Positions 1 through 59,814 of a stretch of DNA of 64,000 nt are shown here, piece after piece. The translations under genes were made by a program, and so were the position numbers. The number at the start of each line of letters is the position of its first letter. Positions within the stretch are counted from its first letter, which is position 1. The DNA comes from a virus. Its lineage: Duplodnaviria > Heunggongvirae > Uroviricota > Caudoviricetes. The notes beneath the pieces are model-generated. The model had not been told where the DNA came from. It did not search any database and saw nothing but the letters and a program-made list of their open reading frames with translations. The stretch lies in IMG/VR virus record IMGVR_UViG_3300014024_000069, positions 59,159-123,158 of that record, one strand, 5' to 3'.

Positions 1-1048
1 ATAACCGACCAGGCACGCCCACCACACGGGCGGCACCGCAAAACAACCACCCCGAGCACCCAACACGAATGCGCTGAAATGGCATGGCACCCCCGCCGGA
101 ACCCATCACGTAAACAGGCCCCACCTGCAGGGCATGAACCCCGCAATCACCACACACGGCAATTCCTTCAAGACGCACCACCAGAGCATCCAGACGAAAC
201 ACAAAAAGAACCACCCCCGCCAGGGCGCGCCGGGACTGCAGAGACAATAGACGCGACACAGCGCCCCGGTATTGCGGTGAAAACGCATCCGCACCGATAA
301 ACAGGGTTGCCGCTCACCCCGCCACATGCTGGCGCCGCGTAAGAACCAGGCACAACAGAAGCGGCAAAGCTCCCCTGTGCCGCTCACACGCACCTTTACC
401 GGCATGCCCCTTTTTGCCAACTACCGCAGCAAAACCGACTATCCCGCACCTCCCCGCCATCCACAGCTACAGACACCATACCCGGCGCGCCACGGTTTGG
501 ACTTCCCGCAAGTACTGCCCCTCTTCACTCCACCACACGCAGAAAGCACACATGGTGGGCATTCATGGCGGCTTGCCTACCTTCTGCTTTTTACACGTGG
601 CCACGGTGGGGAAGGTTATCAACGTGCCGCCAACCACCCCAAAACAAACAGCATCCTACCGCCCCCGCCCTTCCTTCTTTCCGCCGTTGATTCATTCCAC
701 AAACCCCGATTTGCCAAACCAATAGACAAAGTGTATTATGGAAATATCACACTAGCTTTTATGTGATCAACAACCCCTCTGGTGAACAGCCCCACCAGGG
801 GGTCTTTTCGTGTAGCACCAACCAGAACCCGAAAGCATACTGTCAACCCCACGAAACCCTGCAGGGAAGCCTTTTCGACAACCCATTAGGACACGCGGCG
901 CAGGCATGCCCCCGTATCGCAGCATAAGAGCCTCAAGGTACCCCACCCCCACACCACACACGACACCCGCCGCTTCTTGTGCCCACGCACCACCCAATAA
1001 GGAACAAAGGAAGCGCACTATTCTTCTCCGCGACACGCAGACAAAAAA

Positions 1049-1070
1049 GGGGTGAGGGGGCGAAAGCCCC
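1049..1070 (+). repeat. GGGGTGAGGGGGCG-AAA-GCCCC hairpin motif, copy 1 of 5 (others at 2991..3013, 4616..4640, 5523..5544, 5627..5648)
   Basis: Each copy has GGGG(T/C)(G/A)(A/C)GGGGCG followed by a GNRA-like tetraloop (GAAA, GCTA, GACA, GCAA) and GCCCC. Three copies are preceded by CAAAA(A)G. Confidence 0.7.
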
Positions 1071-4000
1071 ATATGGTCGCACACACCAACACTTATCGAC
1101 GAACCCGACATGCCCCCCAGATCGCAGGTAAAACAAGAAGAACCCGCACTGAGGAAACAAAACGAACCCCGTCGCGCCCATCACGCCACCAGCCGCCGAT
1201 AACCGAACCATGCAGCGCCGGGCACCATACAGCCCACCGTCTCCCACGGTTACTGGGTCTTCCTTCCTTCACACGCCTGTCGTATGTGAAAAATGCCACA
1301 GCACGGACTGTGAGAAATGACGGGCACCGCCGACCACAGCAAAGCCACGACACCCCAACCTTTCCCAATACGTGAATACTGCAGCGACCCCCGACCCTCT
1401 TTTAGTTTTCCCGACGAAATCCCGTTAAGCGCAAGCGCCTGACTTCCCGACGACCCCGGCGCGCACGGACATCACCCGCACCAGCACACACCACACAGAT
1501 GAGACCATCGCCGTCAATGATTCAGGTAGGGCGACCAACCAGCAAAACACTATCGGCATGTGCGCCGCAGCCCCCCTATGCGCCTATGCGGGCACACCCC
1601 TGTGGGCTAGAGAATATTTTTGCAGAACCTGTGCACAAATTCTCTTTTTGCGAACAGACCCGAAAGCCGTCACCGCGCATTAACGCCGTAACCCCACCCC
1701 TACGAAACAGGGTGGAAAAAGCGGCGAGACACAGCCACCCATAACGTGACCATGCCCGCCGCCTCCCATACAGCCCAGATCCCTAATGTCCTCCCATTAT
1801 GGAACTCAATTAGTCAGGCCACACAAGTCTTACTTTTTCATGACCTTCTCACTAAGGAAACGAGCCTCATCCTCAGGGACAGTCAACACATCCCGCGCCG
1901 CGTCCCTATGTTTTTCATACTCACTCCACGTGAGCATTGAAGACACGCACAGGGATGCGGTACCCGCAAACCCTAGTACAACAATAGTAATCACCATTGC
2001 TGTTGCTGCACCGCCGTTAAGTAAGAAAAATAAGCCTGCCCCCGCAATAAGCGCACAAAGATTGCACTTAATCTCCGAGGAAATGTAAGAAAACTTCTTA
2101 TCCCGAGCAATCGCCTTATGCTTGTCGGCAAGCGCAAGGCGTGCGTCAATATCTTTGTGATTTTTAAATTCGTTCATGTTTATCCTACCTACATATCCTA
2201 ACTGGAACGCTCTCCACGCTAGGGGTGATTTATTTCCTTTTATTTAACAAAAACTCCACCGCGTACGGGAATGCCTTCCTCGCGGTACGCCCGCCATTTA
2301 CTGCGGGCCTGATTCCTACTTAAGCGACCACCACCGCCAAGCAACCGCTTCGTCGTCAATCCTGCTTGCCTCTTTATATGAGGAGGAAAGCAAAATCTCC
2401 TCAGACGCTTTGCTATGCATCCTTTTCGTGAGGTACTTCCCAGTAGCGAAAATGGTGAAGCAGCTACCAATCAGAACAGCAACGACACCCAAAGCCACCA
2501 CACTTAAATACTCGTCTTTCCATGCTCGGTAAGCAATGTTTTCACCAAACGAAATGATGAAAGCGCCTAACAAATACAGCATGACGGCACCTTTGCCGCG
2601 CAGACAAGCCAAACGCTCATGCTTTTCTGCGAGCCGCATAATTCTGCTTTCGTCCATTTCCTCCACAGTAGGAGATGAGTAGGAGTGCACAACGATGGGA
2701 AGATGAGATGTGGTGAATTGGTTGTAGTAGTTCATGCCTTAAATTATATATTTCCCCACAAGCCACCTCAACTAAATACCCCCACTGTTCACCCCTCTAT
2801 AGTGGAAGCGTCAACAAGGGATAGGCACACCGCCCACGCGCATTCTCCCCACCCCAACAAGCGACCACGCAAACCAACACTATTCACCAAACCAACCCCG
2901 CACTCACCATGAAAAACCATAAAGAAAAACAGGCAGACACCCCACAAGAAACCCCACCCCGTCACAAGACCACACAAACGCAAAAAAGAAGAGGGGCGAG
3001 GGGCGACATCCCCAGGAAGCAGGGAGCCAGGGGCAGAAGACAAAACACCGCCGTAAACCCCATGCCTCGCCGGGCCTGCAGTACACACCACATCCAGCGA
3101 ACAGATCCCCCCCCACCGCATCGTCACGAACCCCAGTATGCCGCCCGCCTTTGCGAAAACGCCGGTGTCGCACAAAGCAAGAAACCCAAACCACACCCAC
3201 AGGGGCACGCAGGTTCTCATGACAAAAATACCGACCCACTACCACACCGGCACCTGCCTGACGAGAAACAGTAACTGTACTCGCGCGGCCAACTATACGC
3301 GCCACCCGCATCAGTCTGCGAAATACGGCACCAACGAGAAGAAACACCAAAAACCCGTCTTGACTTCACGATATCGCCCTACCTCATCACAACCCGGCGC
3401 GCCAGGCCATGCATAGGAGCAATCGCCGTGGACAGGAAGCGACACACGGGCACATCACGCGCCAAAGGTACTTATCGACGCTCCCGCTAATCAGCGCCTG
3501 ATACTACTTCCCCGAAACCCCTCAACCGTGAATCATGCTGGAAACCCCATCAGGCATGTCTGCTTGTCCCCTACCCCGTTCACGTACCCCACAACGACAC
3601 GACCTCATCCATCCTGCGCGTGGTGTGCTGGTGACGTATGACGTAAATACGAGGGCATTCCCCTTTTTGCCGCAGGGTACCAGGAACCCCAGTCAGATAA
3701 AACCCTAAAGGAAACACCACATGGGGCACACGCCACCGCAGTATCATCAGAGGGGTGCCACTTAGGGGGCGCCTGTTCTCTCACGCGGTCAAGGTGCGAG
3801 AACCGCAAAAGAAAGTCGAATACACGTGGTTCCGCGCCAATAGTAGTGGATCTAATCTCCGCCCCCGCAGCTACTTGCCCCCTTCCGCTTGCCGCCGCGC
3901 CAGCAGATTCCACCCCCGCCTACGAACTAGCGCTTCCCTGGACAGGGCCTACATTCCTCCTTGCCCGCGTCTACCCATGCCTCACCGGCAAACGTGAACC

Positions 4001-7000
4001 ACAACAGCACCCCCCAACCCAGCGAACCCGCATAGCGACACCAACGCCGAGTGCAACACAATCACCCCACGCACCTCATCAAAAAGAAAAAGCCGCCGCA
4101 AGCCAGACACACCCCCGACGCGGCAGCCTCACACAAGCAACCTCTTCTAGATTTTCCCCACTAGCTCTCGCTCATCAATATAGTCAAGCCCATCCAGAAA
4201 CTCCCCCACGGTACGCGCAGCATCACCAGACGGTCCCCGCCACCGCTTATCGACGCTCCCGCGAAAAGGTGACCACACGCCGCAACCGCACACCTCCAAC
4301 AATGAAGCTCCAACACCACCGGCACACCCAGAGCATAATCCCGAGAACCCCACATTTCACATGTAGGACTAATCCGATTTCACGCCCTGCCTTCGTACCA
4401 GAAGAACCAGGAAACGACGAACACCACCACATACAAATGAAAAACAATGAGAAAAATCACACAACAACCCACACAGGAAAAGCGCTCCACCAAATTGTTA
4501 ACCCATCCCGCATCGCTCAGCTGTGTCGCCGCATGAACCACCACGGCAACCCAAAGAATACAAAGGAGACTTAAGAGAACACCAACACCACGGGGGCGGC
4601 GCCGTCACCATTTCAGGGGGGTGAGGGGCGCTAGCCCCCCAGCAAGAAACACCAGCGCCCCCAGTCCCGCCCCAACCACTAGCTGTCAACCAAGGAAAGC
4701 GCCCCACCTCCACAGCCCCTTGCCGCCGAGGGCAAAATCCACCCACGATGATTGCCGCAAGAACCCGCGCCGGGCACGTACGAAACCAGCGCAACCACAC
4801 TAGCGTGAGAGATTTTTGAGTGCACTGAACCCACGCCGACGTCAAAGCCACCCAAACACCCCGTCATATGACACACGGGCTTTCCTCAACACCAGCAACA
4901 AGGTTGCTGGCATAGCTGCGTTAGATAACCGCCGCGCATCACAGGGAGGCACCAGAGATCCCGCTAGACCCCAGATGTATGAACAGGGGCAAGGATTGAT
5001 GCGGAACACAGCCCCGTGACATCAGCGCCAACCCCGCCACCCATCATCCGAGAACAGTCTCCCACTTCACCACGCCAGTACCGTGTTGGCAGTGCCCTGA
5101 ACCACACGCACGCCAACGCCCCAACAAGACTCCCAATGGAGAAAAACACGATGCCCGTACAGCAACCCAGGGCACAACAACACCACCCGCCCACTACAAA
5201 TCCACACAAATCACCGCGCAGAAATGAAACCCAAAAAGAACACAACCGCAAGAAACCCCATATAGAACCCCAATCAACCACCGCTGGCACCCATGAGCGC
5301 CACAGAGACACAAAACACACGGGGGCGCGGCACAAACACCAGAACCAGGTAGGCGTTGGCGCGCAGGCAAAGACAAAAGGAAGAGAAACGATGCGGGCAA
5401 GGCGGGCGGGGCGCTCACTTGTTCCCGGCGCGACCCGTGCTGCTTATCGACGAGAACAGAAGAACCCCATGTGCCGCTGAACATCAACCGCCACTAGTGG
5501 GCACCCTTGGACTGCTTCAACTGGGGTGAGGGGCGACAGCCCCCTTATCTCCAACGCACACAAACCGGCATCCTCAGCACGGACCATACCCCCACGGGCG
5601 CGCCGCCGCCCGCCGACCAAAAGCAAGGGGGCACGGGGCGCAAGCCCCGCACAAGCACAACGCGACCAAACCAACCAAAACACAACACCCCCTTGGACGA
5701 ACACACCTAGCCCCACCCTCCCCAGCACACCCACTCCCCGCACATCACCACACAACCCCAAAAAACCACCCTCACAGCTCTTCTCCCTACACAACAACAC
5801 TCCCATAAGGAAAACCCCACGGGACACCCCAAAAGAACCGCCACAAGCCCCCAGGCCCAGGCATTCACCCGCCATGAGCCACCACAGCCCAAACCCACAG
5901 TGACACACAGACAAACCCGCCACAAAAGGGGGACAGTAACCCCCGCACAGAAACCCAAAGGAATCCCCAATAGTCACCCCACCTGCCGTACCCACACCCC
6001 CAGCCACAAACCACCCCGCACTAAAACTGTATGCAACCACCCCAAGCACCGCACCGAAACCCCCGCACAGCAACCACCACCCCACCCCTACTCGTGCTCA
6101 ACAACCGTAACCACCAGGAGGAAACCCTAATAGTGAAAACCAACAGTAACCCCCACAAAACCCAACCCCGCACAGAAACCCACAGACAATAGTAAACAAT
6201 CCCAACAACCCCCCCACTCAATGAGGACACACCCTCAAACCACCCCTATCAACACCAGCCACGGCACACCCTCACCCCAAACACCCAGTAACCAGCCCAC
6301 ATCCCTACACCACCCCCATAGCACCACAGAACAAGGCCCGGCGCGACAACACCAGCAATACCACCCACAGGCATAATCCCTGTTAGAAAAACCCAATTAG
6401 AACAACCTACGGACACCCCCTTTACCCTGCCCCTCACTCCCCTACATCAGGACACACCACAAGACCCTCAGCACAGGCACCCCTCAGTCACAGACAAAAC
6501 ACCACCAAGAAAAATCCCTACTAGGACATCTTCTAGAAAAACCAAAAGAAACCCCCTACACCCCTTCATCCCTCCCCACCAAAGAACAACCCAAAAAGAA
6601 ACACACAAAGAAAACACCCCCAGAAACAACAAAAAGACCAAAACCCCCAACAACCACACACACAAACCAACAAACAACTCGCAGGCACCCCACCCACCAA
6701 GCCCCACCATACACACAAGCCGAGGGGGAGAGCAGCAAAGCAAACTCCCCCACGAGGGTGACAAGACGAAGCCTACAAGCAAATTTGCACAGCAAAAAGC
6801 GAAGAAGACAAGACGCAGACACCTAGACAAAACACAGACAACGAACCAACAACACCCCAAAGGGCGTGGCAGTTGGGAGAGCATCTGAGTTTTGACTACT
6901 TGCGTGAATGGTGGGGCGCAACCACGTGACCACACCAGCGCCCCGACCCGAAAACAGAATATATGCACCATAATGCATGTATTGTGTTTGAGGGGAGGGG

Positions 7001-7120
7001 TTGTGGTTGTGTCCGATTTTTACTGTTTTTTGTTTGGAATCCCACATATGTCTAATCAGGGCACTGTTCTAAGATTGCACCCGGACTGCAAAAATATTAG
7101 GTGGAAACCCTTGAATTAAG

Positions 7121-7159
7121 GGTGTTTTCCCGTGTTTCTGGAGACTGGACTATCACTTA
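7121..7159. repeat. Left arm of a 38/39-bp inverted repeat (partner at 7443..7481) flanking a ~280-bp AC-rich segment
   Basis: ggtgttttcccgtgtttctggagactggactatcactta is the reverse complement of taagtgatagtccagtctccagaaacacggggaaacact (1 indel). Confidence 0.85.
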
Positions 7160-7442
7160 ACGGGAAAACCGTCGCAAAAACATCAAACAATTAACGATGC
7201 GTACACCCGTGAAACACACACCCCGCACACAAAAACCAACAACTCTGCGCAACAAAACCACACAAACAAAAACCAAAACACAAAAGTGAGCGCAGCAATG
7301 CGACAGATCAAGGCGATCACTCATACGACAGCGGCCGACACCCAAACAGGCAAAGACCTCTATTCGTTAGTGTCAGAAACGCAAAACCAGCGGCACAACA
7401 ACCCCAAGCCACACAGCAACAAAACCCCAGGTCGCAAAAAAT

Positions 7443-7481
7443 AAGTGATAGTCCAGTCTCCAGAAACACGGGGAAACACTT
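7443..7481. repeat. Right arm of the inverted repeat
   Basis: See the left arm. Confidence 0.85.
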
Positions 7482-8293
7482 CTCAACCACACCCCACGGC
7501 AGCACCACCAACAAGCGAGGGCATCATCACCAAAAGACCAACCCTTACGCAAGAACAAAACCCAAAGACACACAGCAACACGCCCCACATCTTGATAAGG
7601 CGACGGACGTCAGAAAACACATGCTCCGTATCCGATGGATACAACCGCACGCCTATTGCGACCCCCAAAAAGATAACCCCCTACAGTTATCCGAACACCC
7701 CTGACGAGCAGAACATAGTACGCGGACCTCGAACCAGAACCCCACGCAAAACCATCACGTGCCCAGCGCGCCGGGCACTCACAGGCAAGAGAACGACCGC
7801 ACGTCAACTATGCGAACTGTCCTTATACGCAACAGACCACACAACGACACCGAAACCACAAATGCAACATACCCCCATGAAAGGCCGATCACGCCACACC
7901 CACAATAGGCGTACCCGCTCGCCAGCACGTGCGTGCATAATGAAACCCCCACCTGCTCCACATAAAGTAAAACAAGCGGGGGTGATTCACTCCACTCAGA
8001 AAAAGATGGGTTCCTAAAACCCAAAACAAAGAATAACACACAGTAAGCAAGAAAGCGAAACGACACACAAGCACTAATCCAAACGCCCGTGCCACCCCAC
8101 TACAAGTCAAGACCCCAACAGGAGCTAATAGCCCACCCTCTTACTTGCTCCCACAAGGGATCATTGGAAATACACCCCTCAGAAACTCCGCCAGCATTTC
8201 ACCTAGATAACCCACCCCAACCACACACCACCCCGCCGCAAGTTTTCAAAGACGACACCCCATGTGGTACACTATGACCATGCACATGCGCAT

Positions 8294-8378
8294 GGAAGTG
8301 TGGCAGAGCGGACTATTGCACCTGTCTTGAAAACAGGAGTGTCGAGAGGCACCGTGGGTTCAAATCCCACCACTTCCG
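8294..8378 (+). tRNA. tRNA-Ser (anticodon TGA), type II with long variable arm; no encoded CCA
   Basis: Cloverleaf read directly: acceptor GGAAGTG/CACTTCC, D-stem GCA/TGC, anticodon stem CCTGT/ACAGG with loop CTTGAAA, long variable arm AGTGTCGAGAGGCACC, T-arm GTGGG-TTCAAAT-CCCAC, discriminator G. Confidence 0.8.
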
Positions 8379-8636
8379 CAAAACAACCACCATCACCCCT
8401 TGCAGGGAACACTGATGGTGGTTTTCCTTATGAACACACCCACAATGCAACCCTTGCGAGCATCCTTGCCTCCAACACTATTCCTAAACATGGGCTGGTT
8501 CAAGAAGACCAGCCACACCCCCACCCACACTCTGGTTGCCCTGGTTGTCTCCGCCACGAAACCCGCACAAGAAAACCCTGCGACACACCCCGCATGTGTT
8601 TTGACCAGCGCCCCGAAACGCAATAAAATACACTAC

Positions 8637-8900
8637 ATGGAAAAACAACTAGAACAACCCTCCGAACAACTGCGCGACGTGGCATCCAGCAACCACAACT
8701 ATGTTGTGTCGCTGCACCAACAGCTTGTCGAGCACCGCAAGCAACACGGCCCGTCGATGGAGGAAATGGAAGAGCGCACAGGATGGAGCGTCGAAAAGCT
8801 GGAAAACTTTGAACGCTACGACGCTAACCCCACCCTCAACGATATTGCGCGGTACGCCACCGCCCTAGAGGTGCGCATCCAAGACATACACAAACCGTAG
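8637..8900 (+). CDS. XRE-family (Cro/C1-type) helix-turn-helix transcriptional regulator, ~87 aa
   Basis: C-terminal part of the 8400..8900 ORF from the internal ATG: LVEHRKQHGPSMEEMEERTGWSVEKLENFERYDANPTLNDIARYATALEV is a canonical XRE HTH. The upstream part of that ORF is P/T-rich compositional read-through. Confidence 0.6.
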   Translation: MEKQLEQPSEQLRDVASSNHNYVVSLHQQLVEHRKQHGPSMEEMEERTGWSVEKLENFERYDANPTLNDIARYATALEVRIQDIHKP

Positions 8901-9079: not shown

Positions 9080-12000
9080 ATGTCACATGAAACAATTGAA
9101 CAACTCATCAAGACCGACAAGATTCACCCACCAAAAAGAATCAAGCACCCCGATCATGTACATGACTTCCCCGCAATATGGGGGATGCTCACCAGGAACG
9201 TTGCCGACAACAGGAAAGAGTCAACAGTCAACCACCTAGTGGCACTCACTAGCTGGCTATCAGAAATTGAGGTGGCAAAAACAAAAGCCACCACACCAAA
9301 CACCATCACCAAAACAGAAACGAAAGCAGGCAAGCCCCACACCGCACAGGAGGCATGGGGCGCTGAAACCGAAATTAAGCTAAGCAACGAGGAAGCCCTA
9401 GACAAAGACACCTACCTTCTCACCACCAAAGGATGGGTGAAAATCACCGACATTACCCACAACAGTGAAATTGCCCAATACCACCCTGGCACCCAAACAA
9501 TCAGCTTCACCAAACCACAACAAGTAACCCAGTTTGAGGCTGAATACCGATACAAATTCACCAACACGCAAACCGGTGTGGTGCAAATCGTGTCACCCAA
9601 CCACCGCATGTACTTTGAACGCCTAAACCCCGACACCGGCATGTGGGAAGACCGAGTATGTCTTGCCCACGCATACGAGTCGGAGGTCAAGAAAGGCGAA
9701 ACACGTCTCCGTGTTGCCGCACCCACCCGCATCACCAGAAGGCGCATGACAGACGCGGAAAAACTCGCACTCGTCATGCAGCTACTCCCCATCCATTACA
9801 GTGATGGTGAATACACCATTGAATGCGGATTCGGAAACGTCGAAACCGTCCAAGAATACGCCCGCGCCGCCGGAGTGACCGTCAAATCCACCACCAACTA
9901 CAACGACGACCGCTACAGCGTCACCCTCGCACCCAGCCGTGAAATCAGCAAACAGCTACACCCCGTGTTCCGGGGATACCGGCAAGAAAACGGCAACCAC
10001 TACGCACACGACTACATGAACGTAGTACTATCCGTTTCCGACATCTCCTGCCTACCAGGGCACCACTACCGCATAAACGTGCCCCTCGCCAAAACCATCC
10101 AAGAGGCAGCGTTCGCCGCCGGGTACAAAACAACCCGCACCGGCAACACTATTGACATTTCCATCACAAGCGCCACCACGCCCGCCAGCACCGATCTTGT
10201 GGTAGAGAAACTAGACGGTGAAACAACCTACTGCGTCACCGTCCCCACAACATTCATCGTCACCAAACACCAGCAATCAACAACCCCCGTCATCACAGGC
10301 AACTGCCTTACCCGTGAACACGTCGCAGACAGTCTTGACGCATCCCACAACCCAGGGTGGGGCGACAGCGGCGAAATCATGAACGAACTAGCCCACGAAA
10401 TCAACTGCTGCCTACCCGACAACCTGGAAAACCAACTAGACGGCATCGTCAGCGGTGTTTTAAGCCACGTTATTTACGAACCACACATGGCGAACATCAC
10501 CTACGACCCCTCTGTTCATGACACGCAATCAATAAGGTCACTGCACTATGGGCGCATGGTGAATAAAACCAAACCAAACAGTAACCAGTGCATCTGGGGA
10601 AACACCCTCATCCTCACAAACAAAGGCTACATCCGCGCCAACGAAATCAACAACGATAACAGCATTGAAATAGCGTGCTACAACCCAAACACACAACAAA
10701 TCACCCACGACTCAGTGTTCAGCATCATTGGTGGCAGCACCCTGCCCGCAGGCATGGTCAACACCATCAAAACAAGCCCACAACAACTATTCCACGTAGC
10801 AACAACCCACGGACCCCGCAACCTCACCGCACTGGAAATCTCACAAGAAAAAACCACCTTCTGGAACCACGCACCCAGCATCCTGGAAAACAAACCCTTC
10901 AAAACCTCCAACGAAGGAACCAGCATGCCCCACTACGCAACCGGGCTTCTGGTGACACTACTCAACGAAGCCGGATTCCCCACCGAAGAGAAACCAGAAA
11001 AAGAAAACCACATCAAATACAACACCTTCCGCATGCCAGACGAACTCGCGGAAGAAATCATCAAAGGAAAATACTCAAAAACCCTCAAACAAGCACGCAT
11101 CAACGAATACCGATACCTCGTCATTGATGCCGAAAAACTCCCCACCATCAACATCCACGCAATCGCCGCAAACCTTAACGAAAAACAACTAGAAAAACTC
11201 TACGACTTTGCGGTAACAATCACCCAAAAAATCTACGGGGCAAACGCACTCACCCACTCCGAAACCCTGAAACAACTCAAACAAGCAGTAAAGGAAAAAA
11301 CACTCACACAACCAGAAACACAATACACAGAAGAAGACGCAAAAATACTTGCCGTATACAGTGAGGAATACGGTGAGAAATTCTGGCTGGAACAACCCGA
11401 ACACACCCGCAGCATGTGCAGCATCATGACACCAACCGGCTACTACATCGCCCGGTCACGAAACGAACAAAAATCAACCCCCGTCATCATGCGCTGCGAC
11501 AACGCCAACCAAGAATACGACGACACCATCAAACAACTACGACAAGCCCTCACCCCCGAACAGAAAAGCGACTTCATCAAAGCCGTGAACAACCTCGCCC
11601 AACACCACATCAACATCACCCCCTGCCTCTACCCCGGAAAAGGAAAGAATTTCATAAAACTAACCCAAACAACTATCATTGAACAAGTACACAGCCTCGC
11701 AACCTGCGTGGGCGCACCAATCCACACACTCCAAATACCAACACAAAAGAAAGGAGAAATCATGACAACCAAACAAGACAAAAACCTGCCCTACAGGGCA
11801 ATCAACCTGGGTGACGACAGACACTACCTCACATACAGCACCTCCCCGCAAACCACTGTGGAGCTACTGAGGGTCAACACGCCTGACAAGAAAACCAATA
11901 AGACAAAATACGCCAAACGCGCTGCCCTACTCGCAGCCCCTGCAGTTGGAACCTTCTCAGGACTAATCCTCCACTCCGCCGTAGGAATCCCACTCAGCGC

Positions 12001-12394
12001 GGTATCAATCCTTGCGATCATCGCAATGATCGCGTGCATGGTGCTGAAAAAAGACGACACCGTGGAAGTAGTGCAACAAGCACTCGGTGCCGCACCCGTC
12101 AGCCTGAACACCGTGAACACCCTGGCGCGGGTGAAGAACTCACGATCACAACGTGAAAAAGAAGTACTACAAAACCGCAGGGGCACCATCATTGATGCGT
12201 TCACCAACGACCGCATCATGGAGGAAGACATGACCCGTCTCCTTGATGAGATGATTCACCGCGTCAACAACGAACTGGAAAGCCTTAGCGATGAACGCAA
12301 AGCAGAATCCAAGACAATAGCCGACGCATACTTGGATGCAGACGCGGCTATCTACAGCGGATCCGAACCGATCATCCCAGAACTGGAACTGTAA
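9080..12394 (+). CDS. Large modular membrane protein, paralog 1 of 3 (1104 aa): conserved N-terminal domain, two Hint-like modules, TM helices, conserved C-terminal domain
   Basis: SD AAAGGAG upstream of the ATG. N-terminus LVALTSWLSEIEVAKTK is shared with the two downstream paralogs. Hint-block-A-like motifs are YLLTTKGWVKITDI and CIWGNTLILTNKGYIRANEI..IACYNP; a block-B-like motif is VATTHGP. Shared mid-motifs: TPTGYYIAR, ITPCLYPGKGKNFIK, CVGAPIHTLQIP. Hydrophobic helices lie around aa 950-1000. The C-terminus RRGTIIDAFTNDRIMEEDMTRLLDE...SKTIADAYLDAD is shared with the paralogs. Confidence 0.8.
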   Translation: MSHETIEQLIKTDKIHPPKRIKHPDHVHDFPAIWGMLTRNVADNRKESTVNHLVALTSWLSEIEVAKTKATTPNTITKTETKAGKPHTAQEAWGAETEIKLSNEEALDKDTYLLTTKGWVKITDITHNSEIAQYHPGTQTISFTKPQQVTQFEAEYRYKFTNTQTGVVQIVSPNHRMYFERLNPDTGMWEDRVCLAHAYESEVKKGETRLRVAAPTRITRRRMTDAEKLALVMQLLPIHYSDGEYTIECGFGNVETVQEYARAAGVTVKSTTNYNDDRYSVTLAPSREISKQLHPVFRGYRQENGNHYAHDYMNVVLSVSDISCLPGHHYRINVPLAKTIQEAAFAAGYKTTRTGNTIDISITSATTPASTDLVVEKLDGETTYCVTVPTTFIVTKHQQSTTPVITGNCLTREHVADSLDASHNPGWGDSGEIMNELAHEINCCLPDNLENQLDGIVSGVLSHVIYEPHMANITYDPSVHDTQSIRSLHYGRMVNKTKPNSNQCIWGNTLILTNKGYIRANEINNDNSIEIACYNPNTQQITHDSVFSIIGGSTLPAGMVNTIKTSPQQLFHVATTHGPRNLTALEISQEKTTFWNHAPSILENKPFKTSNEGTSMPHYATGLLVTLLNEAGFPTEEKPEKENHIKYNTFRMPDELAEEIIKGKYSKTLKQARINEYRYLVIDAEKLPTINIHAIAANLNEKQLEKLYDFAVTITQKIYGANALTHSETLKQLKQAVKEKTLTQPETQYTEEDAKILAVYSEEYGEKFWLEQPEHTRSMCSIMTPTGYYIARSRNEQKSTPVIMRCDNANQEYDDTIKQLRQALTPEQKSDFIKAVNNLAQHHINITPCLYPGKGKNFIKLTQTTIIEQVHSLATCVGAPIHTLQIPTQKKGEIMTTKQDKNLPYRAINLGDDRHYLTYSTSPQTTVELLRVNTPDKKTNKTKYAKRAALLAAPAVGTFSGLILHSAVGIPLSAVSILAIIAMIACMVLKKDDTVEVVQQALGAAPVSLNTVNTLARVKNSRSQREKEVLQNRRGTIIDAFTNDRIMEEDMTRLLDEMIHRVNNELESLSDERKAESKTIADAYLDADAAIYSGSEPIIPELEL

Positions 12395-14580: not shown

Positions 14581-17040
14581 ATGTACAAAACAATAAAACA
14601 ACTAGTAGCAAACAAAAGACCCAAAAGAAACCTCACCAAGTTTGAGGACGGACGAGAGTTCTACGCATTCTGGGAGAACCTTTCAGAAAACCTTAACGAG
14701 TCGAAAATATCAAAAGAAAAACAAAATGAACTCATCTCGCTTGTCAGCTGGATGTCTGAAATTGAAGTAGCAAAACGCGACACCCACGAGGTTGAAGACG
14801 CCAATGAACCCGTATTCGGTGAACGACTCATGTTTAACGCCCACACCGATGAAACCAGCCAAGACAGGTACGTAATTGACATAGTTCAACGGTCACCCCA
14901 CGTGGAGGGTCACCGTAAATGGAAAGCAGGAAGAGAGCACGTAAATAAACTCACCAGCGCACTTTCCGTCCATCGCGGCGTGTCAGAAAAATACATTCAT
15001 TCCATCACTGGTGAGATCATCAGCCGGGTCATATACAGCCCTCATACAGAGGCGAAAATAGGATACGACACCGCAGGGATATACCGTGTACGTCAACCCA
15101 TCAACAAAGAATACGGAGGAAGCGTCGGGAACAACACCAGCATTCTCACCAACGGTGGATACATCAATATTGAACAACTACGCAAAGCAAAACAATCAAA
15201 GGAATCATCCAGGTCCATCAAGGTTGCCTGCTATAACCCAGTGTCGAAAGACATAGAGTACGTTGAGCTGTCAAAAATAGACATCAAGGAAGACAACCAC
15301 AACGTTCCAATAGCGCGCGCCAACAATGTTGAATCCAGCGATACCCAACTAGTACACGTTGATACAAAGCAGGGTCCACTGAACTTAACCGTCAGTGAAA
15401 TCATGCACGTTGAGAAATTTGACCCCACCTGCTTCACGAACCCCGCCAATGAAGCGTTGACGAAGACTCTCAACGACATCAATCACAATGCCAGCAATGG
15501 GAATCTCGGAACATTCAATACATCAGTGCTTTTATCCATGCTCGAAGAAGCAGGAGTACCCAATCATAGTGGAAGGTTCAGAGTTTCCGACTATCCAAAC
15601 CTCACGGACAAAATCAAGAAGTTGGACAAACAGGGTTACCTAAATCATGTCAGCGTTTCTAGAAACGGAGAAGAGGTCATCCTTGACGAAGAAGGATTCC
15701 AGGAGAGCCTTAAAAGCGAAAACAGGATCTTGGACACGGATGAATTGCTTGACCTTTACGCATTCTCTGGCGATGTTCATGAAATCCTTAACGAGAAGAA
15801 TGATTTCATCTCACAAACGTACAACGAACTGGAACGAAAAGTTAAGGAACTCGCGCAGCAAAATAGTCTAACCACACCAGAAAGCAAAGTAATCTCAACC
15901 TGGCACATGGCAATCAGCAAATATCCAGCTGGGAAGGGGAAGAAGTTTCTTCAAAGTCAAAAAATGTTCCACATCAAAACGCCAACAGGGTATGTTGTGG
16001 CGAAAAGGAACCAGTCACCAGTAATCTTGTGTGGAAAGTCAATAAACCACGATACACAGTATATTCACACCATTGGGGATAGAGAGTTTCAAGCAAACAA
16101 CTGCATAGCTGACGCGGTAAACGAACTTGCCCTGTACCACATCAAAATACTGCCGACCATATACAAGCATGAAGACAAAAATTTCATCAAACAGATGGAA
16201 TACTCAATCGTCAAGCAGGCGCACCACATATGCTCATGTCTCGGTGCTCCTCTACGCGACTTCAAGATAACACCACTCGTACAAGAAGAGGGAAACAGCG
16301 TACATCAACAAGAAGTGCAAGACATGGCACCAGGCACACTGCCACCACCAACCAACAAGAAAGAAGAGGTAAAAACAATGAGTGACGACGACAAGAACTT
16401 GATAGACAAAATTAGAATGAGCACAATAGACATACTACTTGACGAAAAATATCGTCTCGACATCCGTCTTGGGCCTAACAGATCAATTTTTGTTGAAATA
16501 GACAGAAACTATGTCAAAGAAAATAAAGAACAAGATCGCAGACTTGAGCAAAAGTACTACTTCACGTTACCCCTAGTTGCCATTTTAATGGCTTCTTCTA
16601 TATTGGTTTATAGAATAGTAGGCAAGATTAGCTACATCAGTGAAGAAATCGCAGGACTACTGTCATCTATGTTGATATTCATCAGCTTAAGTCTAGTCTT
16701 ATCACTTCTCCACCAATGGGCGACAACTGTAAAAAGAGAAGTAGAGGAAATCGCCAAGGTGTCTGTTGATACTAACACCGCAAATATTCTAATAAAGTCT
16801 ATCGAGTCACGCTACACCGAAGACACAGATCTACTTAGAAAAAGAAGCGGCATCATCGTAGATGCGCTCACCAACAATGAACTCACCTCTGACGACAAAA
16901 CTAGGTTCATGAGTGAGCTTGCTCAACGAATTAGCAGCGAAATGGAAAGTGAGAATAAGGAGCGGGAAGAAAAATCAAAAGCTATACTATCGTCATACCT
17001 TGAATCAGACTCAATCGTCTACGGAACAGGCAAGGAATAG
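14581..17040 (+). CDS. Large modular membrane protein, paralog 3 of 3 (819 aa), Hint-like module with Ser at the block-A position-1 equivalent
   Basis: N-terminus LISLVSWMSEIEVAKRDTHE; Hint-like module SVGNNTSILTNGGYINIEQL...IKVACYNP; KTPTGYVVAKR; ILPTIYKHEDKNFIKQ; CLGAPLRDFKITP; three hydrophobic helices; C-terminus KRSGIIVDALTNNELTSDDKTRFMSE...SKAILSSYLESDS. Confidence 0.8.
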   Translation: MYKTIKQLVANKRPKRNLTKFEDGREFYAFWENLSENLNESKISKEKQNELISLVSWMSEIEVAKRDTHEVEDANEPVFGERLMFNAHTDETSQDRYVIDIVQRSPHVEGHRKWKAGREHVNKLTSALSVHRGVSEKYIHSITGEIISRVIYSPHTEAKIGYDTAGIYRVRQPINKEYGGSVGNNTSILTNGGYINIEQLRKAKQSKESSRSIKVACYNPVSKDIEYVELSKIDIKEDNHNVPIARANNVESSDTQLVHVDTKQGPLNLTVSEIMHVEKFDPTCFTNPANEALTKTLNDINHNASNGNLGTFNTSVLLSMLEEAGVPNHSGRFRVSDYPNLTDKIKKLDKQGYLNHVSVSRNGEEVILDEEGFQESLKSENRILDTDELLDLYAFSGDVHEILNEKNDFISQTYNELERKVKELAQQNSLTTPESKVISTWHMAISKYPAGKGKKFLQSQKMFHIKTPTGYVVAKRNQSPVILCGKSINHDTQYIHTIGDREFQANNCIADAVNELALYHIKILPTIYKHEDKNFIKQMEYSIVKQAHHICSCLGAPLRDFKITPLVQEEGNSVHQQEVQDMAPGTLPPPTNKKEEVKTMSDDDKNLIDKIRMSTIDILLDEKYRLDIRLGPNRSIFVEIDRNYVKENKEQDRRLEQKYYFTLPLVAILMASSILVYRIVGKISYISEEIAGLLSSMLIFISLSLVLSLLHQWATTVKREVEEIAKVSVDTNTANILIKSIESRYTEDTDLLRKRSGIIVDALTNNELTSDDKTRFMSELAQRISSEMESENKEREEKSKAILSSYLESDSIVYGTGKE

Positions 17041-19549: not shown

Positions 19550-19655
19550 TGGCGTAAAGAAGCAGAACAGGGAAATGTCAATGCCGCACAGTAGTTAGGC
19601 ATTGAAAAACCGCACCTTCCCTAATGTTAAGGGTTGGGTGTGGTTTTTGTTTAAG

Positions 19656-19737
19656 TGCGCCTGGGGAGAGTCGAACTCCCATGCCCGTAGGCGCTGGAAC
19701 CTAAATCCAGTGCGTATACCAGTTCCGCCACAGGCGC
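19656..19737 (-). tRNA. tRNA-Leu (anticodon TAG), type II
   Basis: Reverse complement: GCGCCTG-TG-GCG-GAACTGGTATA-CGC-A-CTGGA-TTTAGGT-TCCAG-(13-nt variable arm)-GGGAG-TTCGACT-CTCCC-CAGGCGC-A. Confidence 0.8.
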
Positions 19738-19792
19738 ATTAGTGAGAGCAGGAAATGACGAACGTGTGCTAAAAGCACTTCCTGCCCTCAAG

Positions 19793-19865
19793 CTCCGCTG
19801 GGTGGACTCGAACCACCAGCCGCCCGGTTAACAGCCGAGTGCTCTGCCAATTGAGCTACAGCGGA
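19793..19865 (-). tRNA. tRNA-Asn (anticodon GTT)
   Basis: RC: TCCGCTG-TAGCTCAATTGGCAGAGCA-CTCGG-CTGTTAA-CCGGG-...GTGGTTCGAGTCCAC-CAGCGGA-G. Begins 1 nt after the CCA of tRNA-Trp. Confidence 0.8.
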
Positions 19866-19866
19866 A

Positions 19867-19942
19867 TGGAGCGAGCAACGGGATTTGAACCCGTACTTAC
19901 TGCTTGGAAGGCAGTTATGCTAGCCGTTAACATTATGCTCGC
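19867..19942 (-). tRNA. tRNA-Trp (anticodon CCA), CCA encoded
   Basis: RC: GCGAGCA-TA-ATGT-TAACGGCTAG-CATA-A-CTGCC-TTCCAAG-GCAGT-AAGT-ACGGG-TTCAAAT-CCCGT-TGCTCGC-T-CCA. Confidence 0.8.
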
Positions 19943-19966
19943 AAAAAGGGAATCTCTTCCCTTTAG

Positions 19967-20042
19967 TCGGGGTGACGGGATTTGAACCTGCGATCTCCTG
20001 TTCCCAAAACAGGCGCTTTAGCCCAAGCTAAGCTACACCCCG
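19967..20042 (-). tRNA. tRNA-Pro (anticodon TGG)
   Basis: RC: CGGGGTG-TA-GCTT..AAGC-G-CCTGT-TTTGGGA-ACAGG-AGATC-GCAGG-TTCAAAT-CCCGT-CACCCCG-A. One A:C mismatch in the T-stem. Confidence 0.65.
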
Positions 20043-20117
20043 CAAGGTGAACGCTACTCATGATGGACATTGAATGTTTTGCAGTTGGTTGTGTGGACCC
20101 CAGCACAAGTATCGTCG

Positions 20118-20189
20118 CTGACCTACTAGGACTCGAACCTAGAAAGCTGGCACCAAAAACCAGCGTGTTGCCAATTACACCATAGGTCA
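20118..20189 (-). tRNA. tRNA-Gln (anticodon TTG)
   Basis: RC: TGACCTA-TG-GTGT-AATTGGCA-ACAC-G-CTGGT-TTTTGGT-GCCAG-CTTT-CTAGG-TTCGAGT-CCTAG-TAGGTCA-G. Acceptor stem perfectly paired. Confidence 0.8.
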
Positions 20190-33542: not shown

Positions 33543-33620
33543 TGGTGCCCTTGGCAGGATTTGAACCTGCAACCTTTTCCGTATCAGAGAAACGCTCTCA
33601 CCAGATTGAGCCACAAGGGC
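33543..33620 (-). tRNA. tRNA-Ile (anticodon GAT), CCA encoded
   Basis: RC: GCCCTTG-TG-GCTC-AATCTGGTGA-GAGC-G-TTTCT-CTGATAC-GGAAA-AGGTT-GCAGG-TTCAAAT-CCTGC-CAAGGGC-A-CCA. Confidence 0.8.
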
Positions 33621-33622
33621 TT

Positions 33623-33699
33623 TGGTACCGGAAGCGGGACTTGAACCCGCATCGCCAGTCTTATGAGGACTGTGCTCTACCGAATTAAGCTATTCCGGC
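33623..33699 (-). tRNA. tRNA-Met (anticodon CAT; elongator-type, or a tRNA-Ile2 candidate), CCA encoded
   Basis: RC: GCCGGAA-TA-GCTT-AATTCGGTA-GAGC-A-CAGTC-CTCATAA-GACTG-GCGAT-GCGGG-TTCAAGT-CCCGC-TTCCGGT-A-CCA. No initiator features (no three GC pairs in the anticodon stem; 1-72 is G:U). Confidence 0.7.
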
Positions 33700-33706
33700 A
33701 TGACCG

Positions 33707-33780
33707 TGCCCCAGGCGCGACTCGAACGCGCATCCTCCAATTACGGCTAACGGGGTAGAAGCCCGCACCGATACAAGGGC
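33707..33780 (-). tRNA. Atypical tRNA-like gene, 74 nt, with a good T-arm and acceptor but ambiguous D/anticodon arms (candidate anticodon TCT or CCG)
   Basis: RC: GCCCTTG...GCGCG-TTCGAGT-CGCGC-CTGGGGC-A; the acceptor pairs at 6 of 7 positions. The best internal anticodon-like hairpin is GCGGG-CTTCTAC-CCCGT (TCT), but it leaves no canonical D-arm. An alternative hairpin is CCGTT-AGCCGTA-ATTGG (CCG). Confidence 0.35.
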
Positions 33781-33833
33781 ATTAGTAGCCACTTACCCCA
33801 CGACAAGTAGAATGCCGCATGGGTTGTGTCTAG

Positions 33834-33905
33834 TGCCCCTACCAGGACTCGAACCTGGACCTCCACTTTAGGAGAGTGATGCTCTATCCATTGAGCTACA
33901 GAGGC
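33834..33905 (-). tRNA. tRNA-Arg (anticodon CCT)
   Basis: RC: GCCTCTG-TA-GCTC-AATGGATA-GAGC-A-TCACT-CTCCTAA-AGTGG-AGGTC-CAGG..-TTCGAGT-CCTGG-TAGGGGC-A. Confidence 0.75.
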
Positions 33906-33933
33906 AATATTTCATGGTGAATTTCACCACTAG

Positions 33934-34005
33934 CACTCCCAACGGGATTTGAACCCGTGCTATAACCTTGAAAGGGTTACGTGCTGACCATTACACTATG
34001 GGAGC
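33934..34005 (-). tRNA. tRNA-Glu (anticodon TTC)
   Basis: RC: GCTCCCA-TA-GTGT-AATGGTCA-GCAC-G-TAACC-CTTTCAA-GGTTA-TAGC-ACGGG-TTCAAAT-CCCGT-TGGGAGT-G. Confidence 0.75.
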
Positions 34006-59742: not shown

Positions 59743-59814
59743 TCGTGCTGTCCTCCTTTGTTGGTTTGTTGGGTTTGTATATTGTGTTTGTTTTACCACA
59801 TGTGGGGTGTGGTT

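Follow-up and report, generated by a model that had tools for sequence, protein, structure and literature searches.

Five strand-specific hairpin elements with G-N-N-A loops in an AC-rich non-coding tract of a phage-like element

An uncultured, ~320-kb phage-like element carries exactly five copies of a short G-rich hairpin element, G4-8 / N3 / GGGGC-GNNA-GCCCC, all on the + strand between positions 1046 and 5652 of the window, the 64-kb stretch of its DNA that we analysed. Judged by sequence comparison, the five elements are a genuine, selected, strand-specific family of signals, for which we propose a cis-acting function. We tentatively read them as RNA modules in which a 16S-complementary purine half and an exonuclease-blocking hairpin would together form decay barriers in an untranslated, AC-rich transcript.

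Five copies of one element in an AC-rich tract

Chance would give 0.05-0.08 matches to this family in the window, against the five observed. The pattern GGGGCNNNNGCCCC finds four exact copies at 1057-5648 (0.08 expected), and GGGGNNNGGGGN{3,8}CCCC matches exactly the five copies (0.05 expected), while none of 100 shuffled sequences gave five matches. One further GGGGCNNNNGCCCC site, at 32423, is unrelated to the family. We trained a covariance model on 30 distinct instances and ran it over both strands of the window with filters off; it returned five matches of 31-38 bits, all on the + strand (1046-1074, 2990-3017, 4615-4642, 5520-5547 and 5625-5652); the next best scored 11.6 bits, and the motif was found nowhere in the window outside the AC-rich tract. 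The initial annotation had claimed five copies, and each is present where it was placed. They are dispersed over 4.6 kb at spacings of about 0.1 to 1.9 kb, and since their flanks do not align with one another, the repeat unit is the 22-nt core. Rfam contains no matching family, and no host-genome copies of the element were found.

Copy 1 (GGGGTGAGGGGGCGAAAGCCCC, 1049..1070) has the loop GAAA, with A6 just before it at 1043-1048; it was found in 7 genomes, with GAAA in every one, and in L009 it has G>A at the first stem base. Copy 2 (GGGGCGAGGGGCGACATCCCC, 2993..3013; loop GACA) is preceded by the purine tract AAAAAAGAAGA. Its stem is broken in this window at the loop-closing pair (G>T; GGGGC...TCCCC), is unbroken (GGGGCGACAGCCCC) in L002, L009 and L062, and carries single, different lesions in L063 and L066. 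Copy 3 (GGGGGGTGAGGGGCGCTAGCCCCCC, 4616..4640) has the loop GCTA (GTTA in L005). Copy 4 (GGGGTGAGGGGCGACAGCCCCC, 5523..5544; loop GACA, GATA in L009) is intact in all 8 genomes, where variation is limited to the third position of the linker and that of the loop. Copy 5 (GGGGGCACGGGGCGCAAGCCCC, 5627..5648; loop GCAA, GCAC in L002) has a stem extendable to 6 bp (CGGGGC/GCCCCG) and a single stem lesion, in L066. A looser sixth hairpin (GGGGGACAGTAACCCCC, 5928..5944), also on the + strand, lies between CACAAAA and GCACAG, the latter corresponding to GCACAA after copy 5. It has no second G-tract and fell below the reporting cut-off of the covariance-model search (E-value 10). The A-rich lead-in noted earlier before three copies is there for copies 1, 2 and 5, as well as for the sixth hairpin, and is missing from copies 3 and 4.

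The tract that holds every copy (1..8250, + strand; A.33, C.36, G.19, T.12) continues in relatives for ~1.3 kb on the left, beyond the window start, and is roughly 10 kb long. Two small membrane-protein genes lie inside it on the minus strand (1830-2177 and 2316-2735), and an XRE-type HTH gene (8400-8900, likely start 8638) adjoins the non-coding region. Indel and codon-phase tests show that the tract is non-coding: between 4780 and 7500, each genome pair differs by 35-49 indels, of which only some 10% have lengths divisible by 3, and the substitutions have no 3-base periodicity. None of the five copies has a conserved ORF behind it. Derived singletons run away from A+C (C>T 80 versus T>C 29; A>G 62 versus G>A 29), and the AC-richness of the tract looks selected. 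Genes with a strong bias, whichever strand they lie on, favour A and C in the third codon positions of their sense strand (C.48 and A.31 in ORF 9080; C.52 in NrdE, a minus-strand gene), so the tract is probably 'sense' on the + strand. GGGGTGA is over-represented on both strands of the whole window (30 versus 10.8 expected).

The copies sit at corresponding positions in 7 further distinct genomes of relatives, on contigs of up to ~321 kb, and across the 8 genomes the 22-nt core is 94% identical (0.94) against 59% (0.59) for the flanks. That relatives keep the copies almost unchanged argues that they are functional. Absence of the motif elsewhere, together with a lack of conservation, had been named beforehand as evidence against a function; the motif is indeed absent from the rest of the window and was not found in a related 234-kb contig, yet it is strongly conserved in related elements. 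It is hardly credible that the copies are relics without present function, left by a decayed tandem array or by old terminators and conserved by short divergence time alone, given that core and flank identities diverge so far within the same genomes. Copy 3 keeps its core (0.94) within almost unalignable flanks (merely 0.50 among relatives), and the 30 instances contain 0 indels against about 40 per genome pair in 2.7 kb of tract. In keeping with relics, copy 2 has three different lesions across genomes and copy 5 has one, and CCCCGCACA, which follows copy 5 and the sixth hairpin, recurs without a G-rich arm at about 5747, 6060 and 6165, a 105-120-nt spacing that suggests decayed units. The copies show no link to homology breakpoints (7 observed versus 7.5 expected).

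Loop and stem rules and the strand that is read

The loop rule of the family is G-N-N-A, not GNRA. The initial annotation had described GNRA-type loops throughout, but only two of the five (GAAA and GCAA) fit, the other three having a pyrimidine at loop position 3, and the opposite strand reads TNNC (TTTC, TGTC, TAGC, TGTC and TTGC) rather than NTTC. Loop base 1 is G in 30/30 distinct instances and loop base 4 is A in 29/30, with variable middle bases; the linker is 3 nt in all 30, and orthologs change it by T>C, G>A and A>T/C. The 5-bp GC stem ascribed to every copy holds in four and is broken in copy 2 of this window. Stem sequence is essentially fixed and the same in all five paralogs, and the covariance analysis in homologues that had been suggested for an RNA helix revealed no covariation, with compensatory changes in 0 of 150 pair cells. 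RNAalifold favours neither strand, and within 81 nt of context the folding energies do not stand out (z from -1.6 to +1.0). The asymmetry of the loop (G...A) makes sense only if a hairpin is read on the + strand, and the conservation of these two loop bases suggests that this strand functions in single-stranded form. The + strand function proposed earlier is supported in part: the family is selected and strand-specific and has conserved loop ends, while its RNA helix lacks covariation and is strand-neutral in RNAalifold.

Conservation of sequence rather than structure, with an identical stem in five paralogs and no compensatory change, would also suit double-stranded DNA sites that form no hairpin and bind an element-encoded protein (for partition, repression in a stoperator-like manner, or replication). 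Such a protein would bind two direct GGGG blocks and one inverted block, the three lying at offsets 0, 7 and 17. The fixed orientation and the spread of copies over 4.6 kb of non-coding DNA adjoining the XRE-type HTH gene are in line with this, and mycobacteriophage stoperators are a precedent for oriented multi-copy sites. We nevertheless consider it unlikely. A dimer-type palindrome needs no G...A break, and the invariant loop G and A are just what a hairpin loop requires; moreover, each half-site is very short, the sites could be linked to no candidate binding protein, and the covariance-model search placed no copy close to a promoter or gene start in the rest of the 64-kb window.

The motif is no canonical terminator on either strand. 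Leftward (minus-strand) terminators or pause sites, with GGGGC-NNNN-GCCCC followed by NNN-CCCC and a U-run, had been offered before as a weak alternative, in agreement with the terminator scan, which reported none of the five copies and gave minus-strand matches not above shuffles (37 versus 30.1); we regard them as very improbable. The CCCC block does lead into a T-rich run in copy 1 (T6-T9 in every relative) and in copies 2 and 5, but the U-run begins 7-8 nt past the stem, beyond a C-rich spacer whose RNA would hybridise strongly to the DNA, and copies 3 and 4 lack the T-run that the initial annotation had placed 8 nt from the stem. Intrinsic termination requires a U-tract directly after the stem, and the canonical terminators of the window (775-802, +; 12856-12832, -) have adjacent T-runs. 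The sixth hairpin is terminator-like, with TTTTGTGG straight after its stem on the minus strand, and was flagged as such by the scan; canonical terminators of other viral contigs contain the same words, for example GGGGGGAGGGGCGAAAGCCCCTCCCCCCTTTTTTTT. Two G>A changes in L009 would leave G-U wobbles in minus-strand RNA only, whereas a G-T wobble in copy 2 of L066 suits the + strand. Terminators, furthermore, require neither identical stems nor fixed loop ends.

Two possible readings: a decay barrier in RNA or a hairpin in single-stranded DNA

As an RNA module, each element would have three parts: a purine lead-in (4-8 G, preceded by an A-rich tract in copies 1, 2 and 5 and followed by U-G-N in copies 1-4), the fixed 5-bp helix GGGGC/GCCCC, and a G-N-N-A loop closed by C:G. 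We infer transcription of the tract and its rightward (+ strand) direction, an encounter of ribosomes or nucleases with the sites in this untranslated transcript, and RNA rather than DNA as the active form. Nearly devoid of G and U, the tract RNA would be unstructured and open to nucleases, and the GC hairpins, as its sole stable helices, would stop 3'-to-5' exonucleases and fix 3' ends following Rho-type termination or cleavage. The purine lead-in, complementary to the 16S rRNA 3' end, could retain a 30S subunit that initiates no conserved gene, and the retained subunit would block 5'-to-3' decay as do the STAB-SD and polypurine 5' stabilisers known from Gram-positive bacteria and phage SP82 (both named in the reference list of PMC3997798).

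We favour this RNA module on account of selection, loop asymmetry, the probable 'sense' composition of the tract and its apparently selected AC-richness, anti-Shine-Dalgarno pairing, the absence of a conserved ORF behind the copies, and these precedents. The purine half pairs with GAUCACCUCCUUUCU (anti-Shine-Dalgarno) at -9.7 to -15.9 kcal/mol, equalling or exceeding nearly all real ribosome-binding sites of the window (about 0 to -11.7 kcal/mol in nearly all; one at -15.8), and the ribosome-binding site of ORF 44076-45509(-), caaaaaaGGGGaaaaATG, has the same words as the copy 1 lead-in. However, GGGGTGA is over-represented throughout the window and G-runs pair with the anti-Shine-Dalgarno by default, so the likeness may be incidental. 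An invariant, non-covarying stem among paralogs would be unusual if an RNA helix alone were needed; copy 5 has no UGA, and the ortholog linker changes would weaken anti-Shine-Dalgarno pairing. The non-GNRA loops (GACA, GCTA, GACA) and the unremarkable 81-nt folding energies also count against the RNA module, and STAB-SD elements work near the 5' end, not every 1-2 kb.

A single-stranded DNA signal is a strong, if less probable, alternative. Here the core would fold as the hyper-stable d(GCGNNAGC) mini-hairpin, extended to 5 bp, on a + strand unpaired by replication, a transcription bubble or supercoil-driven extrusion, and would be read by an element-encoded primase, polymerase or NusG-type antiterminator. 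The 5' G-tract could fold back via the 3-nt linker on the G:C helix as a class I purine-motif intrastrand triplex or, alternatively, be an adjacent recognition or initiation site; comparable cases are the phage G4 and RSF1010 ssi sites, N4 virion-RNAP promoters and the RfaH ops hairpin. Consistently, GCGNNAGC occurs on the + strand only, in 27/30 distinct instances and 4/5 copies of this window, and the loops observed (GAAA, GACA, GATA, GCTA, GTTA, GCAA) match or nearly match those that the DNA mini-hairpin was shown to accept. As reported, d(GCGAAAGC) melts at 76.5 C versus 39 C for RNA, GACA and GCAA loops melt at 72 C, GTTA is accepted and GAAB is weaker, and the motif occurs in the G4, St-1 and alpha3 origins, RSF1010 ssiA and N4 promoters (PMC13037366). 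The RfaH ops non-template-strand DNA hairpin, GCGGTAGC, is a further parallel (PMC5995543), and the order of the three blocks with the 3-nt linker is that of the BoxC/PIT/TMECO triplex layout, purine-motif triplexes being unable to form in RNA (PMC4666352). An invariant stem with a variable loop middle would, from general structural knowledge, fit B-form DNA stem read-out better than A-form RNA, and the window encodes its own DnaG-like primase.

On the other hand, a single-stranded DNA signal leaves the conserved linker T-G and the A-rich lead-in unexplained, only 4 G.G:C triads are possible against at least 6 required by the ITxF search, and TMECO triplexes escaped detection both in double-stranded DNA and in vivo (PMC4666352). 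About 50 ORFs scanned with Pfam include no RNAP, NusG-like or RepB'-like gene, and a nearest-neighbour DNA model favours the + strand by only 0.3-0.6 kcal/mol. The loop has 4 nt here versus 3 nt in N4, and a start in the template G-run, following the N4 geometry, would yield an RNA beginning with C, which is unusual. If mutational, the composition bias would point to greater exposure of the minus strand than of the + strand.

Comparison with known systems

GC-rich intrinsic terminators with C(GAAA)G loops use the same words, GAAA being the loop in 40 of roughly 125 loose-pattern matches in other viral contigs. In canonical terminators, a C-tract downstream of the hairpin serves as pairing partner of the first G-tract, and the T-run comes at once, whereas the family here has no 3' arm or T-run on the + strand and a 7-8-nt spacer on the minus strand.

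The d(GCGNNAGC) / d(GCGNAGC) mini-hairpin (Hirao; reviewed in PMC13037366) lies in the core of every intact copy, on one strand only, with the same G...A loop closed by C:G and loop variants among or close to the stable ones. Its sites in G4/St-1/alpha3 complementary-strand origins, RSF1010 ssiA and N4 early promoters are likewise strand-specific and in non-coding phage or plasmid DNA. Our family differs in its 5-bp G:C stem with a second G-tract 3 nt upstream, in its five dispersed copies (the known sites are one origin or three terminal promoters) and in that no cognate primase or RNAP was found for it; its DNA form is putative. BoxC / PIT / TMECO elements (E. coli and >260 bacterial genomes; PMC4666352) also have three G/C blocks on one strand, a 3-nt linker between two G-rich blocks and the word GGGTGAGGG(G), and are intergenic, multi-copy and conserved. 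TMECO, however, is class II (C-block first) with 9-nt blocks, while the family here is class I (G-tract first) with 4-5-nt blocks, has a GNNA loop, and is limited to one tract of one element, unlinked to homology breakpoints.

RfaH ops (PMC5995543) and lambda nut boxA-boxB likewise join a short linear element to a small hairpin with a C:G-closed G...A loop. This likeness would imply single-stranded read-out that helps RNAP through long Rho-prone regions, and the tract here is C-rich and G-poor like rut sites. In contrast, ops is recognised via loop bases G5 and T6, both not conserved here, the family has no boxA consensus, no NusG paralog or N-like gene was found in the window, and the genes downstream of the tract have their own promoter-like sites (8265 and 8601).

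STAB-SD (cryIIIA) and the SP82 stabiliser are single elements near the 5' end, whereas five copies lie inside a 10-kb tract here and their ribosome binding and RNA ends are putative. Like the present family, these two elements have no conserved ORF behind the purine tract, and together with protective stem-loops they share with it an SD-like purine tract adjoined by a stable hairpin in an untranslated region.

Five hairpin elements in one tract

Five hairpins proposed by the initial annotation are all present where it placed them, on the + strand at 1049..1070, 2993..3013, 4616..4640, 5523..5544 and 5627..5648 (copies 1–5), within an AC-rich tract spanning window positions 1..8250. The word GGGGCNNNNGCCCC has four exact copies in the tract versus 0.08 expected, and the three-block pattern GGGGNNNGGGGN{3,8}CCCC retrieved exactly the five copies versus 0.05 expected; the mirror (class II) arrangement of this pattern gave no match. 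A covariance model built from 30 distinct instances and run unfiltered on both window strands returned five matches of 31–38 bits, all on the + strand, the next best scoring 11.6 bits. The five copies have flanks unrelated to one another. A looser sixth hairpin lies at 5928–5944.

The consensus reads G4-8, T-G-N, GGGGC, G-N-N-A and GCCCC(C0-2), with an A-rich tract in front in copies 1, 2 and 5, and with C-A-C or A-A-C in place of the T-G-N linker in copy 5; a + strand DNA oligonucleotide representing it would be d(AAGGGGTGAGGGGCGAAAGCCCCAT). The loops had been labeled GNRA, a name that suits only two of the five in the window (GAAA, GACA, GCTA, GACA and GCAA), and across the 30 instances GACA, GATA, GCTA and GTTA predominate. 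Copy 2 has lost the loop-closing pair in the window, where it reads GCGACATC, but it is GCGACAGC in the related metagenome contigs L002, L009 and L062.

We compared eight distinct genomes (the window, L002, L005, L008, L009, L062, L063 and L066; L006 is identical to L002, and L007 nearly identical to the window), among which the copies are positional orthologs. Core identity is 0.94 versus 0.59 in the ±60-nt flanks, none of the 30 instances contains an indel, and the positions that vary are the third base of the linker and the middle two of the loop, along with 5' G-run length. Little changes in the helix: of 150 cells, 97.3% are paired, one holds a G-U (G-T) wobble and four are broken (three of these lesions in lineages of copy 2, the fourth in copy 5), and no change is compensatory. 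That the copies are functionless relics is scarcely credible.

The family was found neither in the rest of the 64-kb window nor outside the tract in a 234-kb IMG/VR contig. Across 185,579 species genomes scanned, 51 single matches turned up, scattered over unrelated, mostly GC-rich genomes; these look like chance, and no genome carried two copies, ruling out host REP-like dispersed palindromes. The copies are a lineage-specific, selected and + strand-specific family of cis-elements confined to one non-coding tract, a finding more robust than the initial annotation could know, and the motif is a specific marker for the lineage, with covariance scores of 31–38 bits against noise of at most 12.

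The tract and the element that carries it

The + strand composition of the tract from 1 to ~8250 is A.33, C.36, G.19 and T.12, and its ORFs are low-complexity junk translations, except for two small minus-strand membrane-protein genes. Comparison of 4780–7500 with four relatives showed 35–49 indels per pair, only ~10% of them multiples of three, and substitutions without 3-base periodicity; the adjoining real ORF shows a third-position excess. Because indel lengths are mostly not multiples of three and substitutions are aperiodic, the tract is, on this comparative evidence, non-coding, and indel lengths, substitution phase and frameshifted ORFs together ruled out a coding role for the tract or for the ORFs behind the copies. 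Derived singletons run away from A+C (C>T 80 versus T>C 29, A>G 62 versus G>A 29, C>A 67 versus A>C 29), and for this reason the A+C composition looks selected, not mutational. Where genes on either strand are strongly biased, third positions on the sense strand of the gene itself are rich in A+C, so we took + to be the probable sense strand for the tract. Codons ending in A or C on the sense strand are used to an extreme degree by a subset of genes on both strands; third codon positions are C.52 and T.09 in NrdE, and C.58 and T.06 in ORF 59014–59799. The tract is 60–85% conserved among relatives and is bordered by leftward genes at its left and by tRNA-Ser and rightward genes at its right; in L001/L003 it reaches ~1.3 kb further leftward, to ~10 kb in total.

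Several further features lie inside the tract. The two small paralogous membrane-protein genes, at 1830–2177(-) and 2316–2735(-), have lower GC and opposite skew and their own TATAAT promoter (2771–2743); neither protein matched Pfam or PHROG. A third paralog is present in L001/L002, and because copy number differs in this way among relatives, the genes look like inserted morons. A second oriented motif, CTTATCGACG, occurs at 1092–1101, 3471–3480, 4246–4255 and 5443–5452, with a variant TTATCAACG at 617–625; these 4–5 copies are all on the + strand and kept in relatives, and seven of nine positions agree with the DnaA-box consensus TTATNCACA. Homology breakpoints cluster at 4240, and upstream of the copy at 5443 lies a hairpin whose G-U pairs are possible on the + strand only. 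At 711–810(+), a canonical terminator (CCCTCTGGTGAACAGCCCCACCAGGGGG TCTTTTCG) lies ~35 nt past a sigma-70-like promoter (TTGCCA-17-TATTAT), marking a candidate ~60-nt small RNA with two predicted hairpins that is conserved in L001. A 351-nt block at 6682–7032 is 97% conserved across relatives and contains G-rich hairpins at 6723–6750 and 6913–6944, as well as, at 6990, a strong SD-like site (GAGGGGAGGGG) with GTG and a possible + strand ORF of ~36 aa behind it; the start of a 74-aa minus-strand ORF (6823–7047) is not conserved. Adjoining this block is a 38-nt inverted repeat (7122–7159 / 7442–7479), 97% complementary, with arms 282 nt apart. Finally, CCCCGCACA(G/A) recurs at ~5643, 5747, 5940, 6060 and 6165, spaced 105–120 nt within 5643–6180, possibly as a decayed tandem array; it sits immediately 3' of copy 5 and of the sixth hairpin.

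The carrier is a large uncultured element whose relatives are metagenome contigs of up to 321,202–321,857 bp and the 234-kb IMG/VR contig. Multiple metagenome assemblies contain the ~321-kb element, one or more of them from the human microbiome, and samples carrying it include ERZ27320012, ERZ27319263, ERR9968790 and HMP 7000000510; GenBank phages and PLSDB plasmids gave no near DNA match to the window. The window encodes 11 tRNAs, in clusters at 19655–20189 and 33543–34005 and singly at 8294 and 29874, of which the tRNA-Ser at 8294 comes with an extended -10 site of its own, TGGTACACT (8265). Among its other genes are those for a class Ib ribonucleotide reductase, a ClpB-like 1601-aa ORF, a bifunctional PBP, an RNA ligase, an HNH nuclease and SPFH proteins, together with a 1296-aa hydrolase with SLT, M23 and NlpC/P60 domains (38611–42501(-)), an ArdC-N/M78 protein (57402–58661(-)) and a DnaG-like primase (62436–63836(-)); no structural phage gene was recognised within the window. 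The hydrolase resembles Gram-positive conjugation hydrolases such as PrgK. Together with the ArdC-N/M78 protein and the primase it suggests conjugative-plasmid traits, the IMG/VR listing of the element is viral, and the element may be a huge phage or a conjugative megaplasmid. The oral 'Inocle' elements were ruled out as its identity because their GC is 24–32% versus about 50% here. Beside the tract, two paralogous large ORFs at 9080–12394(+) (1104 aa) and 14581–17040(+) (819 aa) share N- and C-termini, have predicted C-terminal membrane segments and match neither Pfam nor PHROG, and some segments of the 1104-aa ORF appear Hint/intein-like by eye. A wider protein database search with the 1104-aa ORF found only its own 90%-identity cluster and two weak partial matches, its sole distant matches being proteins with an RNR small-subunit domain.

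Strand and rejected identities

Within the loop, the first G is invariant and the last A nearly so, while the middle bases vary. A C:G-closed hairpin loop on the + strand requires just this G...A asymmetry, which is meaningless for the minus strand (TNNC) and for a duplex site with symmetry; a protein site in duplex DNA is an improbable explanation of the copies. RNAalifold and folding energies did not separate the strands. Around copies 4–5, RNAalifold gave -56.8 (+) versus -59.6 (minus), with covariation terms of 0.11 and 0.47, and a larger conserved RNA structure there was rejected because the strands were not discriminated; folding z-scores in 81-nt context ranged from -1.6 to +1.0 and were not distinctive.

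An intrinsic terminator on the + strand was ruled out: such a terminator has a U-tract within 0–2 nt of the hairpin, and no T-run follows any copy, the 3' flanks being ATATGG, AGGAAG, CCAGCA, CTTATC and GCACAA; a terminator scan reported none. The initial annotation had also offered weak leftward terminators as an alternative. On the minus strand a T-run does follow copies 1, 2 and 5, but it begins 7–8 nt past the stem, behind a C-rich spacer, and is absent in copies 3 and 4; the scan reported none of the five, and only the looser hairpin at 5928–5944 has a U-tract within 0–2 nt. We regard leftward weak terminators or pauses as very improbable. Canonical terminators in other viral contigs use the same words, but in these the first G-tract finds its partner in a C-tract past the hairpin, with a T-run immediately after, whereas the hairpin family has no C-tract arm behind the hairpin.

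Other identities were likewise rejected. A known RNA family was ruled out, since Rfam gave no tract match at gathering score or at E up to 5, apart from tRNA-Ser and noise. Breakpoints near the hairpins numbered 7 versus 7.5 expected, ruling out a recombination or mosaic-boundary role, and G-quadruplex or i-motif sequences were not enriched (4 motifs versus 2.1 expected). A promoter common to the copies was ruled out by the lack of any shared upstream sequence and by the near absence of extended -10 sites from the tract; the extended -10 motif (TGNTANNNT) is also depleted window-wide (56 versus 91 expected). A CRISPR-repeat mimic, a nut site, an integron attC and an oriT were dropped on grounds of arm order, size, copy number or a missing consensus. 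Mechanisms we did not consider keep a small share of the probability.

DNA and RNA readings compared with known systems

A single-stranded DNA signal, in which the core would be a mini-hairpin DNA motif, is a possible but doubtful explanation. The word GCGNNAGC lies on one strand in four of the five window copies and in 27 of 30 instances, and is over-represented window-wide (45 versus 26). As DNA, this mini-hairpin melts at 76.5 C versus 39 C for RNA, tolerates loops like those of the copies, has a stability not captured by standard models, and marks the G4, St-1 and alpha3 origins, RSF1010 ssiA and N4 promoters (PMC13037366); a nearest-neighbour DNA model favoured the + strand by only 0.3–0.6 kcal/mol. 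Moreover, block order and the 3-nt linker give all five copies the layout of a class I purine-motif intrastrand triplex, a class that cannot form in RNA (PMC4666352). We consider it unlikely that a hyper-stable hairpin capped by d(C-GNNA-G), its G-tract folded back to make a miniature class I purine-motif triplex, serves as a single-stranded DNA signal with a dedicated reader factor. Such a structure would form on the + strand in transcription, replication or supercoil-driven extrusion, and its reader might be a primase, a hairpin-dependent RNA polymerase or a NusG-type antiterminator, the last of which would let RNAP cross the 10-kb Rho-prone tract. Against a DNA role, the blocks are just 4–5 nt, the conserved T-G and A-tract are unexplained, the loop has 4 nt versus 3 nt in N4, and no cognate enzyme was found in the window.

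The RfaH ops hairpin GCGGTAGC (PMC5995543) is of the same type as the hairpin core; however, ops needs conserved loop G5 and T6 in a C3:G8-closed hairpin of non-template DNA, plus a NusG paralog, whereas the middle loop bases of the copies vary (AA, AC, AT, CT, TT, CA), and no NGN/KOW protein was found in the window. The N4 virion-RNAP promoter (PMC4496689) has a 5–7-bp stem and a 3-nt loop with a central purine on the template strand, with conservation from -17 to +1; the copies have a 5-bp stem but a 4-nt loop, and because their conserved 5' element is a G-run, N4 geometry would force a C start. N4 further has a giant T7-like virion RNAP gene, and its promoters sit at the genome end injected first; the window ORFs yielded no RNAP domain, and ~50–60 kb or more separate the tract from the ends of ~321-kb contigs. 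The class I layout is the mirror of BoxC/PIT/TMECO repeats (PMC4666352), and the ITxF motif has blocks of at least 6 nt (9 nt in TMECO) versus 4–5 nt here, although the 5' G-run alone reaches 6–8 nt in some copies. Acting as DNA, the elements would be a new entry among the few known hairpin-DNA signals and would provide a first function for the widespread intrastrand-triplex repeats; as a single-stranded DNA signal they would form a new hairpin-DNA control system distinct from the paradigms of N4, G4, RSF1010 and ops, and the first selected, functional use of an intrastrand-triplex-type repeat.

Our best guess, a tentative one, is that the elements are an RNA module joining an anti-SD-complementary purine half to a protective hairpin. 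With a canonical anti-SD assumed for the host, the purine half (A-tract, G-run and UGA) would pair with the 3' end of 16S rRNA at -9.7 to -15.9 kcal/mol; for the real ribosome-binding sites of the element, almost all values lie between ~0 and -11.7, with one at -15.8, and one such site, caaaaaaGGGGaaaaATG, has the same words as the lead-in of copy 1. No conserved ORF was found behind the copies: the seven genomes all retain an ATG two bases past copy 1, but the ORFs there are 15–103 aa and frameshifted. This RNA reading is weakened by the over-representation of GGGGTGA across the whole window (30 versus 10.8), by the missing UGA in copy 5 and by invariant stems without covariation. The RNA and DNA readings make sharply different predictions that are cheap to test, and the family offers a clean, testable handle on an odd, apparently selected, non-coding and A+C-rich tract of ~10 kb in a ~321-kb element. 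If RNA-acting, the elements would reveal what punctuates and protects a long transcript that is poor in G/U and free of ribosomes, and the module would suit such a transcript, exposed as it would be to Rho and nucleases. It resembles STAB-SD and the SP82 polypurine stabiliser with a protective hairpin added. Such stabilisers lie at the 5' ends of the RNAs they stabilise and bind 30S subunits; like them, the copies are strongly complementary to the 16S 3' end and have no functional ORF behind them.
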